The position numbers and the translations under genes are program-made. Under the pieces are notes generated by a model. It had not been told where the DNA came from. It saw only the letters and a program-made list of their open reading frames with translations, and did not search any database. A stretch of 63,651 bases of DNA, filler included, from Sphacelaria rigidula (Eukaryota): NCBI GenBank assembly GCA_964200075.2. It is 7 parts of 7 records of this genome, joined end to end, with 100 filler letters (N's around TTAATTAATTAA, not from the genome) between each part and the next. Parts side by side here need not be neighbours in the genome. Positions count along the whole stretch, not along the records: positions 9,109 to 18,116 come from CAXNAA020009530.1; 6 more parts are not named here. One strand, written 5' to 3'. This document shows, piece after piece, positions 10,466 through 61,039 of this stretch; the stretch's first letter is position 1; every line of letters starts with the position of its first letter.

Positions 10466-10623
10466 AAGGTACAACACCTACGCCCACGATTCTCTTCGGG
10501 GGAGGGGTGGGCGTACTCATTTGTTGCTTGCCTTAATGGTCACACGACTAAGGCAAGCAACAAATGAGTACGCCCCCCCCCCCCCTCCCCTAGAGAGAAT
10601 CGTGGGCGTGGGTGTTGTACCTT
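10466..10623. mobile_element. Palindrome formed by two C-tailed LINE 3' ends plus inverted flank
   Basis: ~70-bp arms aaggtacaacac..gcgtactcatttgttgcttgcctta / taaggcaagcaacaaatgagtacgc..gtgttgtacctt around a 13-nt loop (10536-10548). Confidence 0.8.
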
Positions 10624-12744: not shown

Positions 12745-12992
12745 GACACTTTCTACGATAGCCCCCCCCAAAAAGTGCATGGTTTTGGGAGGCAAAATCT
12801 TCACGTAAATCGAAATGGGAAAAGCCGAGCACAACGAGCAGCTGGGGAATTCTCACGACTGGGTTCGTTCTAGCCAGTATTGCCAATATGAGGCGCTTCA
12901 TGCAGCCTGAACCCAAGCATCAGCCGCTGTATGCTCATTTTTTTCGTGACACTTTTGGCTGTTTTGGGGGGGGGGCTATCGTAGAAAGTGTC
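12745..12992. mobile_element. MITE with GATAGCCCCCCC TIRs; relatives at 23607-23858 and ~40960-41170
   Basis: TIR gacactttctacgatagcccccccc / ggggggggctatcgtagaaagtgtc. Confidence 0.8.
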
Positions 12993-13961
12993 GCGGTCTA
13001 ACCCAGCAGAACGGTTATCAAGACCGACGGCTACACCAAGACGCCGAGTACTCGGGAAGAGGGACATGGTAATGCGGCGATCCATCGTGTGAACCACGCT
13101 CAGTCCTAGGGTTTCTCAATCCTAGGACGGAGGGGGGGTCTTACGGATCGCGGCGTGGCGTGGTGGATAAGGACAGTACGATGATGGGCCGTCGGTTTCA
13201 AAACGACATTGCGCCCGGAGGGCTGATTGCGGGAACTGGCTGGCACCGCAATCAGGGGTGAAGGGGGTAATCCGCCAAGAGACGGAATACATAAACATGC
13301 CTCTTTACATCTGGTTGGATCCGGTTCTTTCCGAGGATCGATTCAATCAGCGCCCTGGTGTTCACTTCTTGGAAGTGCCAAGTTAACACCACCAAGAGAA
13401 GAAGAGAAATCGAATCGGCCTGAAGCTGCGATCGAGACATCGAGACGTTCGTCGTGGATCGCTCTGCGTTGGACTTTCCCACGTGCTGTGAGCTTACGAT
13501 TGTTTCAAGGAATAACGGTGAGACTGTAAGATGTTTGATTCAAGCAGTGAGCAGATGTAAGGAGGTCGACAGAGTAGTTAGGAACGAACTTGTACACAAT
13601 CAGGATGGTGTATTTGCAACGTGTTCCTGCGTATTCAACACGGTATATATTAATCATCACGCATTTGTCTGCGCATGATTTGACTTAACTAGATGTTTTT
13701 TCGCTCTAGTACATATGGCCAACACTATTCTGTTTGTAAGAGGAAAGCGTGCTTTCTGGCCCGCATCGAAGTTCAAACCACCCCGGGAGTGACGTTTCTC
13801 ATGCCCACTAGGCCCAGTCCCCGCATGGACCGCGCCCCTGACCCTAACACTAACACTAACACTAACACTAACCATAACCCTAGGAATTTTTGAACTCCGA
13901 TTCGGTCCAAAAGCGGTCCTTCCACGCATTACAATATCCCCCCTCCTATCGCAGGACGACT

Positions 13962-14031
13962 ATGCTCCGTCTCGAACGGGATGCTTTGTCAATGGCGAAA
14001 CGACCATACAAGCAACAAATGAGTACGCCTC
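13962..14031 (+). mobile_element. 70-nt retroposed 3' end of C-tailed LINE with 17-bp TSD
   Basis: TSD cctatcgcaggacgact at 13945-13961 and 14032-14048; insert matches the LINE 3' end at ~36222-36289. Confidence 0.85.
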
Positions 14032-14114
14032 CCTATCGCAGGACGACTCATGGATACGGAAGCATTATCTTTCACACTTACATGTATGTGATGCCGCGGA
14101 ATCATTTGTATCAA

Positions 14115-15069: not shown

Positions 15070-16770
15070 AGTCAAGGACGTTTTAGTATAGTAAAGACCA
15101 CTTTTTCACGATAACGCCCTTAGGTCTCTCTCAAAACAAGATGTAGTTTTATACCTTCATTTCGAGTTTGTCTTTGCGATTCTCCATGCTAAGTTTTAAA
15201 TCACAATTCTGATAATTGATCTGAAAAACTGAGAAAAGGCTACTTCTAATGTATCAAAAAATAAAACTTGTTGAAGAGTGTATTTTTGGCTTTTCTTCGT
15301 CATTTTCCCCCCGAAAAGAGAGCTGGGCGGATGTTGACACCTTGGGATGACTTGCCCTACTCGCTGAGACTGTTCCAGAGCACCTTCACGTTTTTCGTAG
15401 GTCACAGTTTCGTTTTTTGTCTAACCTGCATTTTCAATAATAACGGTCAAGTTATCGAAAAGTAGGGAGAAGACTGCCATTTATTTTTACAACGTGATCA
15501 TTTGTTACTGAAAATGCAAGTTTGGCCAAAAACGAAACTGTGACCTACGGAAAACGCACAAGGTGCTCTGGAACGGTCTCAGCGAACAGTGTACCACATA
15601 TTCTGAAATTGTCCATTTAGGCCTATTTGACCCTAAAAGTGGTTTCGCGATAGTATCGCGATAGAAAGAAAGACAATTTTCGCTATCGCGATGCTATCGC
15701 GATGGACAGAAATGATCAGGATTGGCATCGCGATAGCATCGTTTACGGCCAGAGAAAATCAAATTAAGGTAAATTGTCTGGTCCTACATATAACAACGTT
15801 TTCGTGAGATTGAGAGTAGAATGCTGATTGAGAGTGGCTTTGATCATTCGCTTTAACTTGGCCAATTTTTCATTCCGTGTGAGCTTTTCTTTGTTTCTAT
15901 CACTAGCGTGTGCTTACAGCTACACGTCGATATCCTACTCAGGGATATCAAGGGCCTCAGTGGCGAGCTACTAAATGAAGCATATCGGGCCTCATGGAGG
16001 TGCATTCCGAAACTGAAACTATTCAGTCACTAATTAAGTGCTTTTCACTCTCAATCGTATCCTCTACTCTCAATCTCACGAAAACATTGTTATATTTCCT
16101 CGTGAAAATGTTCAATGTCGCCAGTGGTCGTTGCAAGAAACTGTGTGATCCTGTGGCAGATAGTATCGCGATAAAAAATGCAACTTCTCTCTATCGCGAT
16201 AGGGAAATTTAGCCTAAAGGGGCCTGTGACGGTTTAAGAGACAACCAACTAGACTACTGACCAGTCAGTGCTGACTCATCAGTAGTCTAGTTGGTTATCT
16301 CTTAAACCGTCACAAAAGTTAGTCGCTGGCCGTTCCAGAATATGTAGGGGTCCCTCAGCCAGTGGAGCGAAACACTCACCTGGCCCCCTCTTTTCGGGGG
16401 AAAAACGAGAGAGAAGGGCGAAAAATACACTTTTCAACAAGTTTTCTTCTTGAATATATAAGAAGTAGCCAAAAGGTCCAAGAACAGCGTCCATTTTTCC
16501 TTAAAACTCCCCTAAAAAATCGAAAAAACGAAAAAGCGAAAAAAATCACAGTTCAAAGTTCAAGTTCAAAGTTCAAAGTTCAAAGTTCGAAATTCGAAAT
16601 TCAATGTTCAAAGTTCGAAATTCGAAATTCAAAATTCAAAATTCAAAATTCAAAATTCAAAGTTAAAGAATGAAGAAAGCTGGAGCTCTTTATTGTTATC
16701 ATGTACGAGCGATTCTCCACACGAAATTTCGACGTACAACCCTAAAAAACTGACATGCTAAATCCAGATT
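15070..16770. mobile_element. Nested MITE/foldback cluster
   Basis: Inverted repeats ~15265-15345/16370-16445; hairpin 15361-15585; MITE ~15787-16097 (TIR ttttcgtgagattgagagtag, also seen at ~200); hairpin 16225-16314; (TTCRAAA/G)n at 16551-16665. The outer element is homologous to ~25710-26375. Confidence 0.7.
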
Positions 16771-23529: not shown

Positions 23530-23855
23530 GTATGTTGTCGCAGGAGGACGGGAAGACGTTGGTTGAAATGGTGAAAAATGCAGATATTTTTATTTTATTT
23601 GTAGCACGACTAATGCCGAGATAGCCCCCCCACAAAAGTGCACGGGAGACCGTCCGACAAAACGGTTGCAATCCCACTATTGGGCTCATTTGCAGCAATG
23701 CCGCCCACATGAAAGGCTTGTAGCAGTCCGAAATCAGCTATAACGCCCAAATAGGTCGCGTCGTGAAACACGAAACCAGCTCTAACGGCATTAATGATCA
23801 TTGCCTCCGTGCACATTTTTGGCCGGTTTGGGGGGGGGGGCTATCTCGGCAGCAG

Positions 23856-24148: not shown

Positions 24149-25831
24149 TGGCGACAACAGAGCATAGGTACAACGGGGTTTCTTGCCCGTGCGAGAGAGC
24201 GTGGGTTGTACGGTTGAGCACCGGTGGGCGCACGTCAAGAAAAATGACAACCAAGAGACGCGATTGTTGTGCAAGGCAATGTGCTCATACATATCATATA
24301 CATAGCATAGCAAGGCTGAAATATTTGACGTCGGTACGCGTGTGTTGGAACTCTGTCTGATACGCCCGCTATCGGTACTTTCGCTTAGTATCTCGATATC
24401 GCGAAACGATATGTTTGTACTTGACATGAACGGGGGAGGCTGCCGAGGCCTGTGGCAAGCTCACTTTCCATATGCCGATGTTCATACCAACATGATGTGC
24501 ACTCAGGAGTATGAGGTCGCCCAAATATCGTGAACCGCACAGGCTGATAGATGAAAACGGTGCACGGCAAGCATACTGCGATGAACCGGGAAGCGCAAAC
24601 ACACGAAGATGGCAGCGGTGGGTTTGTGCGTACATGGAGATAAATGGGGGGCTCTGGTGTGGAGGTGGATGGCGTCTGCGGATCTCTCCGATTCCCAGAG
24701 GCCGCGTGAAGAGGCGGGGAGGTGATCAGCCTCAAATGTTCTGCAGGAGCGGCCGGAAGCGTTCCGGAAACAAATTCGGGACTCCCTCAACCTCATGGCG
24801 GTAGTCCAGTTTCCACCACGAAAACCAGCTAGGCTGTTTATGTACAACAGAGAGATAGAGCAATCGAAGTTTACGGCATCGCCGAAGCAATGCAGTATGT
24901 GCAAGGGATCATTCACGCCGGCAGGTTTGGTCACCGCCAAATCGCCGACCTGGATAAAGCAACGGCGGGAAGAATTGGTCGGCAGTGTGACATTCAGTGT
25001 TTTCAGCACGGAAGGTAGCATTTGGCAGGCCAGGCGTTTGTTGACATAGATCTTTTTGGAGCCATGAACGTTCCCATGCTACCGCGCGAGGTAGGGCTCT
25101 TCCAATCGTCCTCGTGTAGTCGTCTTCTAATGTTGGTAATCTCACCAAAAGCAGTACTCGCTTTGTGGATAGTACGCCCCGATTCTAATCGCTTAAAAAA
25201 AGGAATGGTCGATTCATGCTAGGTTGGTGGATGTGATGCTCGATACGAGCTGGGCCAGCCTAGGAGCGGATGTGTAGTTTGCAGGCCCATTTTCAGCTCA
25301 ATTTTTAGAGTTGGATCTTAAACTTTGGTGCGGACAATGAAACGATTCTAATAGAAAAACGTATGCATTGATCCAAAGCCTTCTGTTCTTCATGAGTTGA
25401 TGACATTTTACTGCAGCCTGAAAACTGATTATTGCCTCTCATTTATGAAAAAAAAAAAACAGCTTCGGGTCCATGTAAACTTTGTTTTGTTATCACCTAC
25501 TTGTTGTTCATACCACAGTTTAAGGTCCAACTCCAAAAATTGAGCGGAGAATGGGCCGTTTGAAAACCGGGCCAGCCTAAGTTTGGAACAGTATCTTGCA
25601 GGCCGCTTACCGCCCCAGGTTTGGTACTTGCTTATCGGGTTTTTGTGTGGGACCTCGCTAGGGCATAATAAAATAAAAAACGTTGGCCGGGTTGATTTTT
25701 CTTTTACTGGTCGAGGACGTTTGAGTATGGTAAGGACCGTTTTTTCACGAGAACGCCCTAATCTCTCTCTCAAAAAGAAAGTGAAGGCCATTGTTTTTTC
25801 TTCAGCGAGTCATCCTACGATAGGGTGGGGG

Positions 25832-25904
25832 GGGGGGGCGTACTCTTTTGTTGCTTGCCTTAGTCGTTTGACCATTGACCACGCACCCCTTTCGAGACGG
25901 AGCA
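25832..25904 (-). mobile_element. ~70-nt retroposed 3' end of C-tailed LINE with 17-bp TSD
   Basis: TSD ctacgatagggtggggg at 25815-25831 and 25905-25921. Confidence 0.85.
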
Positions 25905-27224
25905 CTACGATAGGGTGGGGGTGGGGGATATTTGATTGCACGAATAAAAAGGCTCACAAGTGTGTCAGACACTGCCGCACTCGCGGGGCGCTTGTGTTTG
26001 GTTCAAAACGGTGTCTATCGGTATGAATGAGCGTTATTTATTTATAACAAGCTCTTGGAATTTCGTGCAAAAAGTGGCCCAAAATACCCCCCACGTATCG
26101 TACGATGACTCCAGCATGTCTTTGCGGTTCTCCATGCTCAGTTTTACATCACGATTCGAGAAATTGAGCTGAAAAACTGAGGTAAGGTCCAAGAGCGAGG
26201 TTCGTTTTCCCTCAAAACTTTACTGAACAAACGAAAAAAATGAAAAATGAGGAGTGAAAAATTAAAAATTAAGAAAACACTGTTTTTTTTCAAATATGTT
26301 TTGCACTAGCGGTTCTCCACACGAAATTTCAACGCACGACTCTCAAAAATTGGGACCCGATATTCAGATCTAATATATTTCGTGCCTCTGCTCGTAATCT
26401 ATTAACTTTCGAATGAAAGCTTATGCGCGCCATATCTCGAGGTAGAAAACAACGTAAATGAAGATGAGGATATCTATCGTTTCCCCGTGCTCCAGGGAAT
26501 GTCCACACCAAAAATGGCCATCCTCTGTATACATCGTCCGGGGTTTCATGTAGACTTTAGTATAAACGCCACATCCGCACGGTATAGGAATTACTAGACA
26601 TGGGGTTCAATCAACGAGAAAAAAATGGCCACGACTTTTGGGCCGATGAGCACCTCCCCCTTGGTTAGACGGTTACAACATACGGGTCACGGCCCAACTC
26701 GTCTGTATCGATGAGATATTTCTTTGAGAGCTTGAAGCCGTTTCTAGGCTGGACCAACCTGTTGTTGTCTCTTTTTGTTTTTACATAATGATCGAATACT
26801 ATTTATTGTTATTATTATTTGTCTGACATCATTTTTTATTACTAATATTCTTCATATATAATTGCTTTAGTTTTAGGCTCAAAAAAACTCCAGCCACACG
26901 TGTCTGCAAGGTTGCGCTGAATCTGGCTTGCACAACTGGCAATAATACGGCAGCACGGTAGCATTTGGAACGGCGGGTGTGCTATTTTTTTTCTTCTGGC
27001 CCTACTCCTTGTGATATCGGGATCTCGGGAAGGCATCCCACCCTCTCTACCGTCGCTTGGAGGAATTACCAACTGGGTGGTGGACCGGGCAACTTGTCGA
27101 CCGTACGTCAGGGTAATAGGCGGGTTGCATTCGCACGAGAGGTGAGGGAGCTGTGGCCAGAAACGATCTGTGACGCTAGCCAGCGCTAGAATGACAGCGT
27201 CAATATGCTTGTTCGAGGGACTCC

Positions 27225-27324: not shown

Positions 27325-27463
27325 GTGGTCAATGGTCAAACGACTAAGGCAAGCAACGAATAAGTACGCCCCCCCCCGACGTCCCCATTTCGGTGGGGGT
27401 TACTCACTTGTTTCTTGCCTTAGTCGTTCGACCCTTGACCACGCGTCCCTTCCGAGACAGAGG
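27325..27463. mobile_element. Tail-to-tail pair of C-tailed LINE 3' ends
   Basis: 27325-27377 (+) ends ...gcaacgaataagtacgccccccccc; 27395-27463 is a minus-strand copy. Confidence 0.8.
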
Positions 27464-27975
27464 AGGTTCGCGTCGGATGGCAACGACACTATAAAGCATG
27501 TCATTCACTGCGCATGCTAGGCAACCGGGTTACCGTTTCCCCCCCCCCGATTGCGCTTTTTGCGGTTACCATGATAGTCGAGCTAGATCATTTTGTGTGG
27601 GGTGGAGAATTTTATTTCCGCGCAGAGGGGGATGATCGTACCACGTAGGGTTCTAATGGTGAGACACCCATGAGGCAGTAGAATACGTGGCTGTCTATGG
27701 AAGATGCGATGCCAAAGAATGAAGCAACTCATTGTAGGCTGTCATGCAAATGCAAGATAATCAGTAGGCTTTGGGCCAAATAATCTTGGCAGGATGCAGC
27801 TCACCCTTCATGCGACTCGTCGAACACATCACGGCGTTTTGCGCTTGACGATTGATTGCGAGCCTGGTTCGGTAAAAATAGCCGTAAGGCTACAGCATGC
27901 AAGATCATGCGTACCCCGTCCCCCCCCCTCCCCCCCTCCTCGGTCGCCGACCTTCCTTCATAATACCTCGCGTAG

Positions 27976-36431: not shown

Positions 36432-36903
36432 GTCCCGGCATTGTAGGGATGCGAGGTCAATGGTCTGATGACTATGGCATGCATGATCATGAGTACACCC
36501 AACTGGGTACCGGTGTGCCAGTTACGGGAACAGGGGCGCGGTGCGGTATTCGGCTCGCAAAAAATCATGATCAAAAATAAAAGGCACAACAACTACTGAT
36601 GTGTGCCACGTCCAGTGTATTCGACTCCCATGGACCATGACGACTACAACCAGAATCTAGTTTTTTCAATTCAACGTCCGGCAAACAAACCACATTATTA
36701 ACATGCTACAATACAACAAACACAAGGAAACACTGTCACCGTGAAGGAGGATACCCACATACCCCACATCCCCACCCATCCCCTTGTGTTTTAGTTGCAT
36801 GCATCGGATGCATTGGTACACACGATTCCCCTTGCAGAGTTGTGCGCAAGGTACTCAGAAAAAAAGGGACTGAAAACACCCACATCCTCTCTTTCTCTCT
36901 CAC

Positions 36904-45538: not shown

Positions 45539-45584
45539 ACTCAAAGTCCGCGCGATAGAACCGGGGGCGAAGGGGTGGTGCTTA

Positions 45585-46016
45585 GCCTACTCATTTGTTG
45601 CTTGCCTTAGTCGTTCGACCATTGACCACGCATCCCTTTCGAGACGGAGCAAGGTGAGCAAATCGGAAACACTCCTGGAAGGAAACTCGAGAATGGTGGC
45701 ATAAGACGAATAAGGGATAGAACAGACGGAGCAAACTAAATAACAAGAAACATGACAAGGAAGGAGACGGGAGGGGGGGGGGGGGCGGGAGGAGGAGTAT
45801 TCATTTGTGCTTGCCTTGGTCGTTTGGCCATTGACCACGCATTCCTGTCGAGAAGGACCACCGCTCCTACTCCTTATAGAGACATCTCCAACATTTGGAT
45901 GCTCATTACGTTTTTTCATACGTTACACAATAATATTTTACATATCTCATCCCCTCTCTGTTTCACCGTCGGTGGCTACCACTCATCTCCTAGGGGGGGG
46001 GGGGGGGGGGGAGGAG
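45585..46016 (-). mobile_element. Two further C-tailed LINE 3' fragments (45585-45651; 45797-45992 flanked by G-runs on both sides)
   Basis: Minus-strand translation KKRNEHPNVGDVSIRSRSGGPSRQECVVNGQTTKAS matches the 35877-36313 copy. Confidence 0.8.
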
Positions 46017-46747: not shown

Positions 46748-47609
46748 CTGTGAAGCCATGTCAAGAGACAAGGGCAACATTCATAGAGCGCTGCGCAAAT
46801 CAGACGTGCTAGTTCACACATTTGGGGCTATTCTAGGAGAATACAACATTCAGAGTCATTCTACGTTAGGGGGGGGGGGAGGGGGGGCATTTCTTGCACG
46901 AAATTCCACTTCAGACCGTTGGTGAAAGCAGCAACGGTTGTACCAACGCGCTTGTTGCCGACAACTAACGCTCATGAATACTGCTCGACACTATCTTCAC
47001 CCAACCACAAGCGCACCGCGAGTGTGTTAGACTGTCTGTTCACACTTATGAGCCTTTTTTATCGTGGAATCAGCCCCCCACCCACCCTCCCCCCTATCGT
47101 AGCATGACCCCAGAGAAAATCCCGATGAAGCCTAAGGACACAATTTCTCCTGCAGACATTGTGCTCTCCTACTATAGACGGTTTACGGCTAAATATAAGC
47201 TTGTAAATAATTCGCCGTATCTGAAATCTGCGGGAAGAACGTTCCAGCTGTAGTTTGACGTTCGCCGTTAGACGAGTAGCGGACTGCTACATGGGGGGAG
47301 GCCGGACGTGGGAAACAACCGGTACCAGGAACCATCTGTCCACTGCAGCGTGTGGTGATATCATCAGGGATGACGCGAGACGACTCGAGGCGATAGATGA
47401 TGCTGACCCGACAAATTCACAAAAACAATAGATTGGACACCTTCTAGGTTTTGTGGGGAACGATGCGAACATGAAAACAAATATTTCACACAACGTCAAA
47501 TTTCAGCAAACTCGCGTCACGTAACCGCACCGAAAGCATTGCCGTTAATGGAGCAATATGAATTTCCTGCACTGGGCCAACGGCATGAAAAGGACCCACC
47601 TATACTCAC

Positions 47610-54645: not shown

Positions 54646-55956
54646 AAAATTGGGTTGCTTTATTCGGTCGAACCCCCACTTCCAGAGACAGCCACAGCTT
54701 TTACACTGCCTCATGGGTGTCGGGGGGGGGGGGGGGGGGGGGGGGTTACCAGGGGGCGATATACAACATACGCCACTACAGTACTGTAGATACCACGTTA
54801 TACCAAAAATAGACGAAACTCCATCAACCGGGGGGTAAAAACCTAGCACCACAGGGAACACGCATCAATAGGTGAAAAACAAATTGACAAGAAGGGTGAA
54901 GTCAGATTCTCCGATTTGCACGTGAGCAACAGTCTCTCAAAAAACCATAAAGTGAATACTTCGCTCGAGGACAGCAACAGGTTGCGTCATTTCCTGAAAT
55001 CACCACCACACCCTTGACGTTCGATTTGATTGACAAGTAGAGACTGACCAAGCCTTCCATTCAAGCAAGCGAGCTGCTCGATACCGTTAGACTTCAAAAT
55101 CCATGTCAACTCGCAAGCGATGAACACAGCCTTGGGAACCTGCACACTGCTTCGAGCGATGTACAAGAAAAGTCGGACGCAGGTGAGAGAAATCCTGCTG
55201 ACGTGATGACCAGCAAAAAAAAACAAGAAATGGCTCGAGTCGCGGCATCACCTGGACATCACCTCAACCCCCACGGAAAAAAAGGTTTAGGACAATATCA
55301 AGTCACTCAACGAGTACTCGAGGGCATCACGTTACTCCTGCAGGTGCAGCAGTTACCGTTATCCCGTTACTCCTCATCTTGAGCGCCGTAGTCACCAAGA
55401 CTATTTGCCTCGCATCCCTACAAAGCTGTGACGGAGCACGCTGGATTTTCGCCGAACAAGGCTCGCACTCAATCACCAGGCGCGAAGCACCGTATATGTA
55501 TTCGGCGTGTTGCATGAAGGGTGGGCAGCATCCTGGTAAGATTGTTCTGCCCGAAGCCTACTGATTATCTTGCATATGGATGACAGCCTCCGATGAGTTG
55601 CTTTATTTTCTGGCATCGCCACTTCCAGAGAGAGACCCATGGGTGTCCCACTTAACACCACGTAGTACGATCATACCCTTTGCGCGGAGTTCTGGTTCTC
55701 CAACCCGCACAGTAGTATTTACCTCGACCAATATCATGGTTACCGCAAGAAAAAAAAAGGCGAAAAAACCCGCGGTAACCTGGTTGCCTAGATCACGCAG
55801 TGAGTGGCGTGTTCTACAGCGCCCGTGCCAACCGACGCCAACTCTCCAAAATAGGGGGAGGGGGGAGGTCAGAGATATGTGAATTCAGAGAGGGAGAGAC
55901 AGGGATATTTATGTCTTGTTTCGAGACACTGCAGTTTTTTCCCACTGTTGACTCAC

Positions 55957-58150: not shown

Positions 58151-60474
58151 GAACATTTGGGCTCTTGTTGTGCGACAAAGTGGGCTTGAACGGTACAAAC
58201 CTTTGACTACTTCATTTTATTATAAAAACGACTTTCCGGGAACGTTTGATGTTGAAACGACCCCATTGCATCAGCTTTTTCAGTCATGTCCCGATATTTC
58301 GTACCAATTCCTTGGACTGGCTACCCCAGGACGAATAATGTGTTAACCTTCAGACATTTTGTACCGGCTTCCGAGGGTCCCCGCGTGAACACCCCCAGAA
58401 GCCGGTGAAGAGCGGAGAAACTTTGTAATACTTTCAACGATCCGTTTTTTTTCCTTTGGAGCATCAACGCCCACCGAGTTGTCAAATTCAAGGTCATCGG
58501 AGCTTTCTTACGACAGATATTAAGGGAAACCCTCGTGAGCCGTTCTGGGTCTTTGGTACGTACCATCACAGGGAATCCTGCGACGTCAGAACCCCGCATC
58601 CCCGAAATACCATGTTTTACGGTATTAATTCGAGCCCATGGCAAGTGTTTTCGGAGTTGATGGTAGATGTAACATTGTGAAACATGTTGAGATTAGGAAG
58701 AAATTGGCTCAAGGATTTGCACTCTCAATTTCAGAAAAAGTTCGACGCCGCTGATTTGTCGAGGAACCTTTTCGCCCTTACTTTTGCTCTTAGCGCCAGG
58801 GATACTCACGTTTTCCACGAGGGGCGGGTGACAGAGGAGTGGGCATCTGTTCCTGTTCCCAGAGAAGCCGAAAAGCTCACCAAATCGACCATGTGTGTTT
58901 GGAAGTTTCCCGCGGAAAATTGTGATCTAGACTCGAGGCCCGAGAGGAACTGAGTGACCATTTGAGAGCTGTGATTTGTCAGAGTGGTCACTTGTTCCCC
59001 TGTAGACGGACTATAGATGGACTACCTGGCGGGTCAGCCGTTTTCTCACCTTGGTCATGATAATTCAATCATATAGAACATGGGCATAAACGACGTGCTC
59101 TGTACTCTGGTCGTGGTCTTTGCCGTCTGCCTCATCCTTCGTGTGATGCCGGCATAGCTTCACACTCTCTGCAGTTTCGTTGTGAAACACTCAACAGAGA
59201 TATCAGCAGCGTGCAGTAGATTGTGTTCAGTGAAAAACGGTGGCACGCTGACCGCTTCTTGTTGTATCCAGCGAAGATATACAGCATATCAGATGTACTG
59301 ACTCTGCAAGCACTTGACTGCAGGGTAAAAGCCGATCAGGGGTTCTGCGGCACTATTTATTCCACGTTTATAAACCCAACATCCACATGCTCATGGAAAA
59401 CAGCGTTTTGTGAGGGGGAAAACAGTTGCTCTAAAGCCCCAAATGTGGCATGGTCTATCTGGTGAGGGTTCGCAGTCTAAGGATTAAAACAAAAATTCGG
59501 CCGAGTCACCCTTTTCAGTTGTTCATGGCGGTCAGTTTGATACCATGCTTGCGACATTTGGGTAGGTATCGCGGAAGGTATTTGCTCATCAGTGAATTTT
59601 GGGCTGAGAGTGTGAACCAACACGTTTCATGTCAGATGGTAGTTTTTTTCAAAGAAACTGAGTCAAGTCAAGCTAAGCATATCGTTGTAATCGACTACTT
59701 TACGCGGTCATGCCAAAGCCATCCAGCGGAGAAATCTGCTGGGTTGGTGTCGTGGAACTCGCGTCTCCATCTGTGTACTCTTCTGTCGTCGGATTCTTGT
59801 ATTGGCTTCCCCGAAAAATTTCCACAGAAATCATTCATCCCAATCTGTCGGGACTTTTTGAGTTTGTAAATCTCGATCCGAGAAAAATTGACACATGAGT
59901 TGCTCTGTGAGTTACTATTGATATAAAGTTACAGCCTAGACAATATAGGGAATATTTTGCATGTAAGGTTGCTTTTATGCGGAGCATTTTTTCGAACACC
60001 TCCTGGAAATATCGTGACGCACCGCTGAATTTTTCGAGCTGGGTCCCGAAATTTTGACATGTGATTTGCAATGGACTCGTTGACATATTTGTGAATGGTT
60101 CACCGTTTAATTCGTATTATTATGTCGATGAAACGCCACCGATCAACTTTTCGCAACGGAAGGTCAACGGAAGGAAATCAGAAAAAATCAATCGGTAGAC
60201 AAAAATAAAAAATCCAACTGTGAATGGGTCGGCGAGTCCCTTGCAAAAATCAAGTGTCAAAATTTTGGCCCCTCGACTCGAAATTTGAGCACGCCTTGAT
60301 CGCCAGCACAGCTAACACAGCTTGTAGTGCTCTTGCAGGCACAAAGGCGAACGCCTCGAAATGCTTCCATCGCCATTGATCTGAGTAAGACAGAGAAAAA
60401 GAAGGTCCCTACTCACGCGTGCTGCTTGCCGGCAGTACATGTAGAACACATGTTCTATATGGCACCCTACGTAC

Positions 60475-60630
60475 CTCGTACGCTTCACCAATGTCTCGGA
60501 AAGTTTTCCCCGCCTTCTCCTTCTCCGCCTCGCTTTTGCTGCTCTGGCGGTCGGGGTGGTACAAGAGGGCGGCCTTCCGGTAGGCCTTTTTGATTTCGGC
60601 TTCGTCCGCGCTACGGGATACGCCAAGCAA
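60475..60630 (-). CDS. DNAJC7: DNAJC7-like J-domain exon
   Basis: [28 protein letters not shown]...FRDIGEAYE with the HPD motif; donor GTACGT. Confidence 0.92.
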
Positions 60631-61039
60631 CTGTGCCCCCCCCACCCACCCCATCCCGGCCCAGCCAACAACATGAACAGGAAGAACAACAAACAGCAAT
60701 AGCAGCGGCAAGATCCAGGGTTGTCCAATCAATCACGTGTGAGCATTTACATTCAGAATTACGCTTCAATTCCAACAGCAGCAGCAGCAGTAGCAGCAGC
60801 GGCGGCGACAGCAGCAAACAGCAAGCAGTCACTTCCAGCAGGCAACAGATGCCAGGTTGTCGCACGAAATGCTTCGCGTATCAGTAAGATGTCAAACATA
60901 CGAAGGTCGAGCTACGATTTTACTCACCACCACATGGCGCAATCACCACAGAGACGGAAAATGTCGAGATTATCAACACACCATTTTATTCATGATATGT
61001 CGTATGAACTTTCGTGTGTGCGTGTATGTGTGTTTTACT

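Follow-up and report, generated by a model that had tools for sequence, protein, structure and literature searches.

The window analysed here is a 63,651-nucleotide stretch of DNA from Sphacelaria rigidula and consists of seven unrelated pieces of about 9 kb each, with N spacers between them and a GC content of 0.46–0.50. Long open reading frames (ORFs) are few, and old dispersed repeats are abundant, with 83 repeat pairs between or within pieces. Among the few likely host coding pieces is an ORF fragment at 60412–60732 (minus strand), which we take to resemble a DnaJ J-domain. Searches of the whole window with Rfam at the gathering threshold and with ARAGORN for tRNAs gave no matches. The motif CCTATCGYAG occurs five times in the window against 0.11 expected, a count reached in none of 100 shuffles, and C or G runs of at least six number 61 against 18.8 in shuffles.

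At two places in the window, termed sites A and B, a short insert interrupts this motif and is bounded by direct repeats (table 1). The initial annotation had described both as insertions of a long interspersed nuclear element (LINE) with target-site duplications, the first on contig 2 and the second, on the minus strand, on contig 3. The duplications are identical at 17 of 17 positions at each site, the contig labels agree with the piece boundaries, and the downstream copy at site B continues into GATGACTC, as had been stated. The inserts, 70 nt long at site A and 73 nt at site B, are homologous (83.8% identity over 68 columns) and match the 3′ end of a LINE, of which both contain the last 68 nt. 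The duplicated 17-mer at site A extends from the CC before TATCG to GACGACT, and that at site B from the C run to ATCGTAG. Within the motif, both junctions are therefore offset by about 7 nt between the sites, with a stagger of 17 nt in each, and the 3′ junction of both falls at or inside the C run of the host's terminal inverted repeat.

With junctions about 7 nt apart in the motif and an identity of only about 84% between the LINE pieces, the insertions at A and B are independent, as had been claimed. A comparison of the 5′ junctions, proposed earlier as the means of distinguishing separate insertions from a single one, gave the differing result: the sequence just before the insert is …GACGACT at site A and …ATCGTAG at site B, and the sites also differ in their 3′ junctions. 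Identity between fragment A and the reference copy of the LINE (L001, described below) reaches only 84.7%, and the duplication around the fragment is nonetheless perfect; the fragment therefore probably derives from a diverged source subfamily with the same insertion habit, rather than owing its divergence to age. Just upstream of the host end at site A, at 13846–13885, lies a (CTAACA)n microsatellite with degenerate CCCTAA-like units, and one contig joint in the four-run data described below likewise has TTAGGG-like units beside the motif.

Table 1. Positions of the two insertions, their hosts and the remaining LINE copies in the window. TSD, target-site duplication; TIR, terminal inverted repeat.
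Feature	Position	Strand	Evidence
Site A, upstream 17-bp TSD copy	13945–13961	+	Identical to 14032–14048
LINE tail fragment A: 68-nt unit with …GAGTACGCC as its end, preceded by one extra A	13962–14031	+	84.7% to L001 over 72 columns; nhmmer E = 1.4e-20
Site A, downstream TSD copy; TIR-like host end extends to 14049	14032–14048	+	
Site B, upstream 17-bp TSD copy	25905–25921	-	Identical to 25815–25831
LINE tail fragment B: 68-nt unit and C tail	25832–25904	-	91.6% to L001 over 95 columns including flank; nhmmer E = 1.6e-25
Site B, downstream TSD copy	25815–25831	-	Identical to 25905–25921
MITE-like host, copy 1: about 216 bp, with insert and duplication adding 90 bp; imperfect TIRs begin GAGTCATC	25807–26111	-	TIR scan; alignment to copy 2; absent from paralogous flank 15071–15239
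Second TIR of MITE-like copy 1, unoccupied	26095–26111	+	Two mismatches to the 17-nt motif; C6 precedes
MITE-like host, copy 2, containing the empty site 47091–47110; both TIRs unoccupied (46853–46869, minus strand; 47094–47110, plus strand)	46853–47110	+	75.8% to copy 1 over 153 columns
LINE tail copy C, starting at the unit boundary; degenerate CTATCGC motif in 3′ flank	45584–45651	-	
LINE copy D, 5′-truncated, at least 374 bp; then a C-rich run including C16	35923–36296	+	80.8% to L001; tblastn to ORF residues 1295–1425
LINE tail copy E, cut by the piece start; C9 tail; tail to tail with F	27325–27377	+	
LINE tail copy F, starting at the unit boundary; another repeat begins at 27462–27465	27392–27464	-	
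LINE tail copies H (minus strand) and G (plus strand), head to head in a 158-bp palindrome; G with C13 tail	10505–10585		
LINE copy I, 207 bp; C19 directly upstream (45993–46011), C13 downstream (45773–45785)	45787–46011	-	
Diverged LINE tail copy J, at the piece start; no C run after it	36444–36501	+	nhmmer E = 5.6e-8

The LINE is represented by two full-length copies from outside the window. L001 is a metagenome contig found with a DNA pattern taken from the 68-nt unit, a pattern that had no match in genome contigs or viral contigs; L002 is one further copy, recovered by a protein scan of genome contigs, and the same kind of scan of viral contigs for the LINE gave no match. The L001 ORF of 1426 amino acids carries an N-terminal AP-like endonuclease domain (Exo_endo_phos, PF03372; residues 235–461, E = 6.7e-13) and a reverse transcriptase domain (RVT_1, PF00078; residues 807–1056, E = 1.1e-30). 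The ORF crosses the 68-nt unit and stops at a TGA that lies 8 nt ahead of a C10 run, so that the element ends in GAGTACGCC and then a C run; L002, 73% identical to L001 at the protein level, has the same ending with C13. Both domains, the 5′-truncated copies with a common 3′ end and the 17-bp duplications at A and B identify the element as a LINE with an AP-type endonuclease. Its best matches among solved structures are to human L1 ORF2p (8c8j, 8uw3 and 8sxt; E ~3e-22), and R2 also matches. Of 5926 candidate proteins, 269 were relatives at E ≤ 0.001; the closest of those with a name belong to the brown alga Ectocarpus (59% identity), and unnamed relatives reach 80% and 73%.

Since contigs bridge its 5′ region, L001 appears to begin inside the LINE, and its own 5′ junction is unreadable. 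Upstream of the LINE 5′ region in L002, positions 1–200 hold a tandem array whose units measure about 60 bp and finish in a T run. Stretches of the LINE 5′ region (L002 476–519, with an exact 12-mer, and L001 321–353 on the reverse strand) resemble the reverse complement of the 68-nt unit. This likeness was discounted: L002 scored 25 against 23 for the best shuffle, and L001 scored 18 against 24.

The host sequence belongs, as the initial annotation had proposed, to another repeat family, and the supposed target motif corresponds to the outermost part of the terminal inverted repeat (TIR) in an element resembling a miniature inverted-repeat transposable element (MITE). This family has two full TIR-bounded copies and one partial end in the window, is short and non-coding, and is missing from a paralogous flank. 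The TIRs are imperfect and about 25 bp long, and each of them has a C run directly internal to its 16-nt terminal sequence. The flanks of copy 1 recur at 15071–15239 with only 33 bp between them, so the boundaries of copy 1 are fixed; GCTG on both sides of it suggests a putative 4-bp target-site duplication, and no duplication is readable at copy 2. One end of copy 1 is filled (site B) and the other is empty, and both ends of copy 2 are empty. The uninterrupted motif at 47091–47110 is present as quoted and represents a paralogous site that holds no insert. At site A, the host has only its last ~45 bp in common with the family of site B. A second MITE-like family (12745–12992 and 23625–23840) has a related terminal sequence (CTATCGTAG…) with the homopolymer run on the opposite strand. 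The similarity of the sequence adjoining the LINE in L001 or L002 to the MITE body is no higher than in shuffles.

A search with the 68-nt unit (nhmmer) gave 13 matches in the window, ten with E ≤ 5.7e-8, which are the copies A to J, and three with E > 1. These copies range from 68 to at least 374 bp and have a common 3′ end sequence, and A, B, C and F start at the same LINE nucleotide. The motif follows the LINE tail clearly in A, B and L001, is degenerate in C, and is absent in D, E, F, G/H, I, J and L002. Strict specificity for one position is therefore not what is seen: among the ten window copies, L001 and L002, three motif flanks are clear and one is degenerate.

Two arrangements of these copies are worth recording. 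Copies G and H lie in a palindrome at 10466–10623 (158 bp, 83% self-complementary), in which the LINE tails are joined at the centre and the flanks are mirrored too; it looks like twin priming, or two insertions in a palindromic target. The tail-to-tail copies at 27325–27464 are separated by 17 nt between their C and G runs, which equals the duplication length at A and B. Elsewhere, one paralogue of another repeat (54722–54790, minus strand) has an extra block of about 48 nt ending in C24, and the other (27640–27660) is without it; the block may be a second kind of C-tailed retroposon.

Contigs from four public sequencing runs were placed on L001 at a likeness of at least 80%, their numbers being counts of contigs and not of genomic copies. 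Between 81,380 and 165,746 contigs per run were placed, and depth climbs towards the LINE 3′ end. At that end (place 104), the match to the LINE gives way in 816–1794 contigs per run to a homopolymer that is C on the LINE strand. Past this run the sequence varies: the consensus for each run reaches an agreement of only 0.37–0.43 and faintly echoes the TIR. The same homopolymer adjoins the 5′ end of the 68-nt unit (place 179) in 324–404 contigs per run. Joints leading from places 177–182 back to 104–108 (70–79 nt) represent tandem units with C runs between them, and the nine such unit-plus-C-run joints listed for one run (X2) sum to at least 88 contigs. Among the joints listed, one of high depth in another run (X1) has the TIR motif directly after the LINE tail.

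From these observations we consider that the LINE probably homes to C runs, of which the TIR happens to have one, and does not recognise the motif itself. The abundant LINE would integrate by target-primed reverse transcription at C runs. Its endonuclease would nick the bottom strand at or beside a G run, exposing a G-ending primer to which the C-rich 3′ terminus of the RNA could anneal; judged from the duplications, the bottom-strand primers would end in G next to a further G run. A cut in the top strand 17 nt downstream would produce the 17-bp duplication. Copying would very often halt at a fixed point 68 nt from the tail, giving the 68-nt unit plus a C run, and this fixed start might reflect either a discrete RNA or a strong stop. 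The ends of the MITE-like element would serve as ready-made targets, because their C run lies immediately inside the 16-nt terminal sequence. Each insertion would leave a new C run, and insertion into older tails could then build tandems.

The suggestion in the initial annotation that the LINE prefers C tracts fits the four-run contig data and copy I, with C19 upstream and C13 downstream. The same simple repeat stands on both sides of the insertion in copy I and in the 324–404 contigs per run at the unit boundary, and at A and B a C run lies upstream of the duplication. Several points count against homing to C runs. Copies C and F have no duplication and no upstream C run, and in D, E, G and J the 5′ junction is either lacking or not legible. 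The C run might be nothing more than a tail added by the element, with no counterpart in the target, and the tandem arrays could have arisen by array expansion rather than by insertion into older tails. Finally, the motif follows the tail in A, B, L001 and one contig joint, more often than the 8% share of TIRs among C runs predicts, in a test that is not significant.

This last point leads to the principal alternative, true element-in-element targeting, in which the endonuclease or the RNA of the LINE recognises the MITE TIR (CTATCGTAGGATGAC plus the C run) and the copies elsewhere are off-target or old. We regard it as unlikely, though it has evidence in its favour. The motif stands directly after the tail in the cases just named, with the degenerate CTATCGC of copy C in addition, and the consensus of the loose ends at place 104 carries its faint echo of the TIR. 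C runs in TIRs are filled in two of five cases, compared with five of the 58 others (odds ratio 7.1, one-sided Fisher p = 0.09, in a window chosen for these sites). With a TIR share of 5/61, the chance of at least two in eight is 0.135, and the selection of the window for these sites leans towards enrichment. Insertion at the motif above the rate at other C tracts, as initially proposed, thus holds as a direction in the counts and not as a significant difference.

Other evidence stands against recognition of the TIR. Strict site-specific LINEs insert at one position, and the junction position differs by about 7 nt between A and B. In copies D, E, F, G/H, I, J and L002 the flanks are different, and none of the four ends of the second MITE-like family, whose related TIRs have the run on the opposite side of the motif, contains the LINE. 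The MITE-like ends have been hit at least twice independently in the window, and this part of the proposed element-in-element targeting stands; a dedicated system is not established, as other copies adjoin C runs elsewhere. The window alone does not separate homing to C runs from recognition of the motif.

A further possibility, which we hold to be improbable, is that the 68-nt unit is a discrete small RNA, cut from the coding end of the LINE or started within it, that acts as a minimal retroposition module. Alone or as multimers it would seed C runs as new landing sites, with C-run MITE ends as safe harbours; if this were true, a 68-nt module would be building its own target landscape. A structured small RNA was considered for the unit and rejected, with every line of evidence unsupportive: L001 60–300 had no Rfam match at E ≤ 10, the window yielded no tRNA, the fold was no better than chance (z-scores −1.11 to 0.35), and a compensatory change was seen in only one of 21 predicted pairs.

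A scheme of template-switch chimeras has little to recommend it. Here the reverse transcriptase would copy a discrete 68-nt RNA and jump to the 3′ end of a MITE transcript, so that the repeats would be two RNA tails. The discrete 5′ end and the tandem unit arrays would fit such end-to-end template jumping. However, both copies of the repeat at site A have the same two variant bases, unlike the motif at site B, which is what local duplication predicts; the filled MITE occupies a position normal for a MITE, with a paralogous repeat as its flank; and no evidence speaks for transcription of the MITE. The last alternative, a single insertion into a MITE that was later amplified as a composite, so that the filled sites are copies of one event, can be set aside almost entirely: the two inserts start at the same LINE nucleotide, in the same orientation and in related host ends, but the differing junctions of A and B rule it out, the 5′ and 3′ junctions falling at different motif nucleotides and the duplicated 17-mers being different stretches, while the common start is a genome-wide hot spot also seen in C, F and the 324–404 contigs per run, and the two hosts have only ~45 bp in common.

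Homing of the LINE to C runs, the reading that we prefer, can be compared with several known systems. In domain order, an AP-type endonuclease followed by a reverse transcriptase, the element resembles human L1 ORF2p. In L1, a T-rich primer pairs with the poly-A tail, and inverted copies arranged head to head are the product of twin priming. The likeness to L1 extends to 5′ truncation, to duplications in the range of 7–20 bp and to head-to-head inverted copies such as G/H. Unlike L1, the tail is C and not A, the ORF ends 8 nt before the tail and leaves almost no 3′ untranslated region, and truncation is concentrated at one nucleotide. The fixed 68-nt stop gives a way of approaching the question of what terminates reverse transcription.

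The host has the features of a MITE in its imperfect TIRs of about 25 bp, its length of 216–258 bp, its lack of an ORF and its presence or absence between paralogous flanks; it departs from a typical MITE in its target-site duplication, just a putative 4 bp at one copy and unreadable at the other. A LINE inside a DNA transposon also has a precedent, since Tx1L sits inside the Tx1D DNA transposon of Xenopus. The likeness lies in a LINE of the endonuclease type found repeatedly inside a DNA transposon family, with target duplications. The present case differs from Tx1L and Tx1D in its shifting junction position, in the many copies found outside the MITE, and in having the C run as the common feature.

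A third comparison is with LINEs specific for microsatellites or telomere repeats, such as Kibi, Koshi, TRAS and SART. Repeat-homing LINEs stay clear of genes and illustrate how site choice is shared between endonuclease and RNA tail. Target-specific non-LTR elements use rRNA genes, tRNA genes, transposons, microsatellites and telomere repeats, and the Togen families are (TG)n-specific LINEs whose tail matches the target (PMC4640811). With repeat-specific LINEs such as Togen, the present element has in common that its 3′ end matches the target repeat, that insertion recreates the target, and that copies are tandem or nested. The two differ in the repeat, which here is a C homopolymer, and in the endonuclease, which is restriction-like in Togen and AP-type here. 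The literature searched, Repbase and subscription journals aside, held no description of a C-tailed or C-run-homing LINE and no account of LINE targets in brown algae.

For annotation, the LINE accounts for a very abundant short repeat and for the tandem arrays of that repeat in the genome. If homing to C runs is real, it would help to explain the excess of long C and G runs in this genome, and it would add the G/C homopolymer to a list of targets that includes poly-A/T, microsatellites, telomere repeats, RNA genes and transposons. On the best reading, the LINE acts like the repeat-homing LINEs, with a C-homopolymer target that we did not find described, and thus joins a familiar behaviour to an unusual target.
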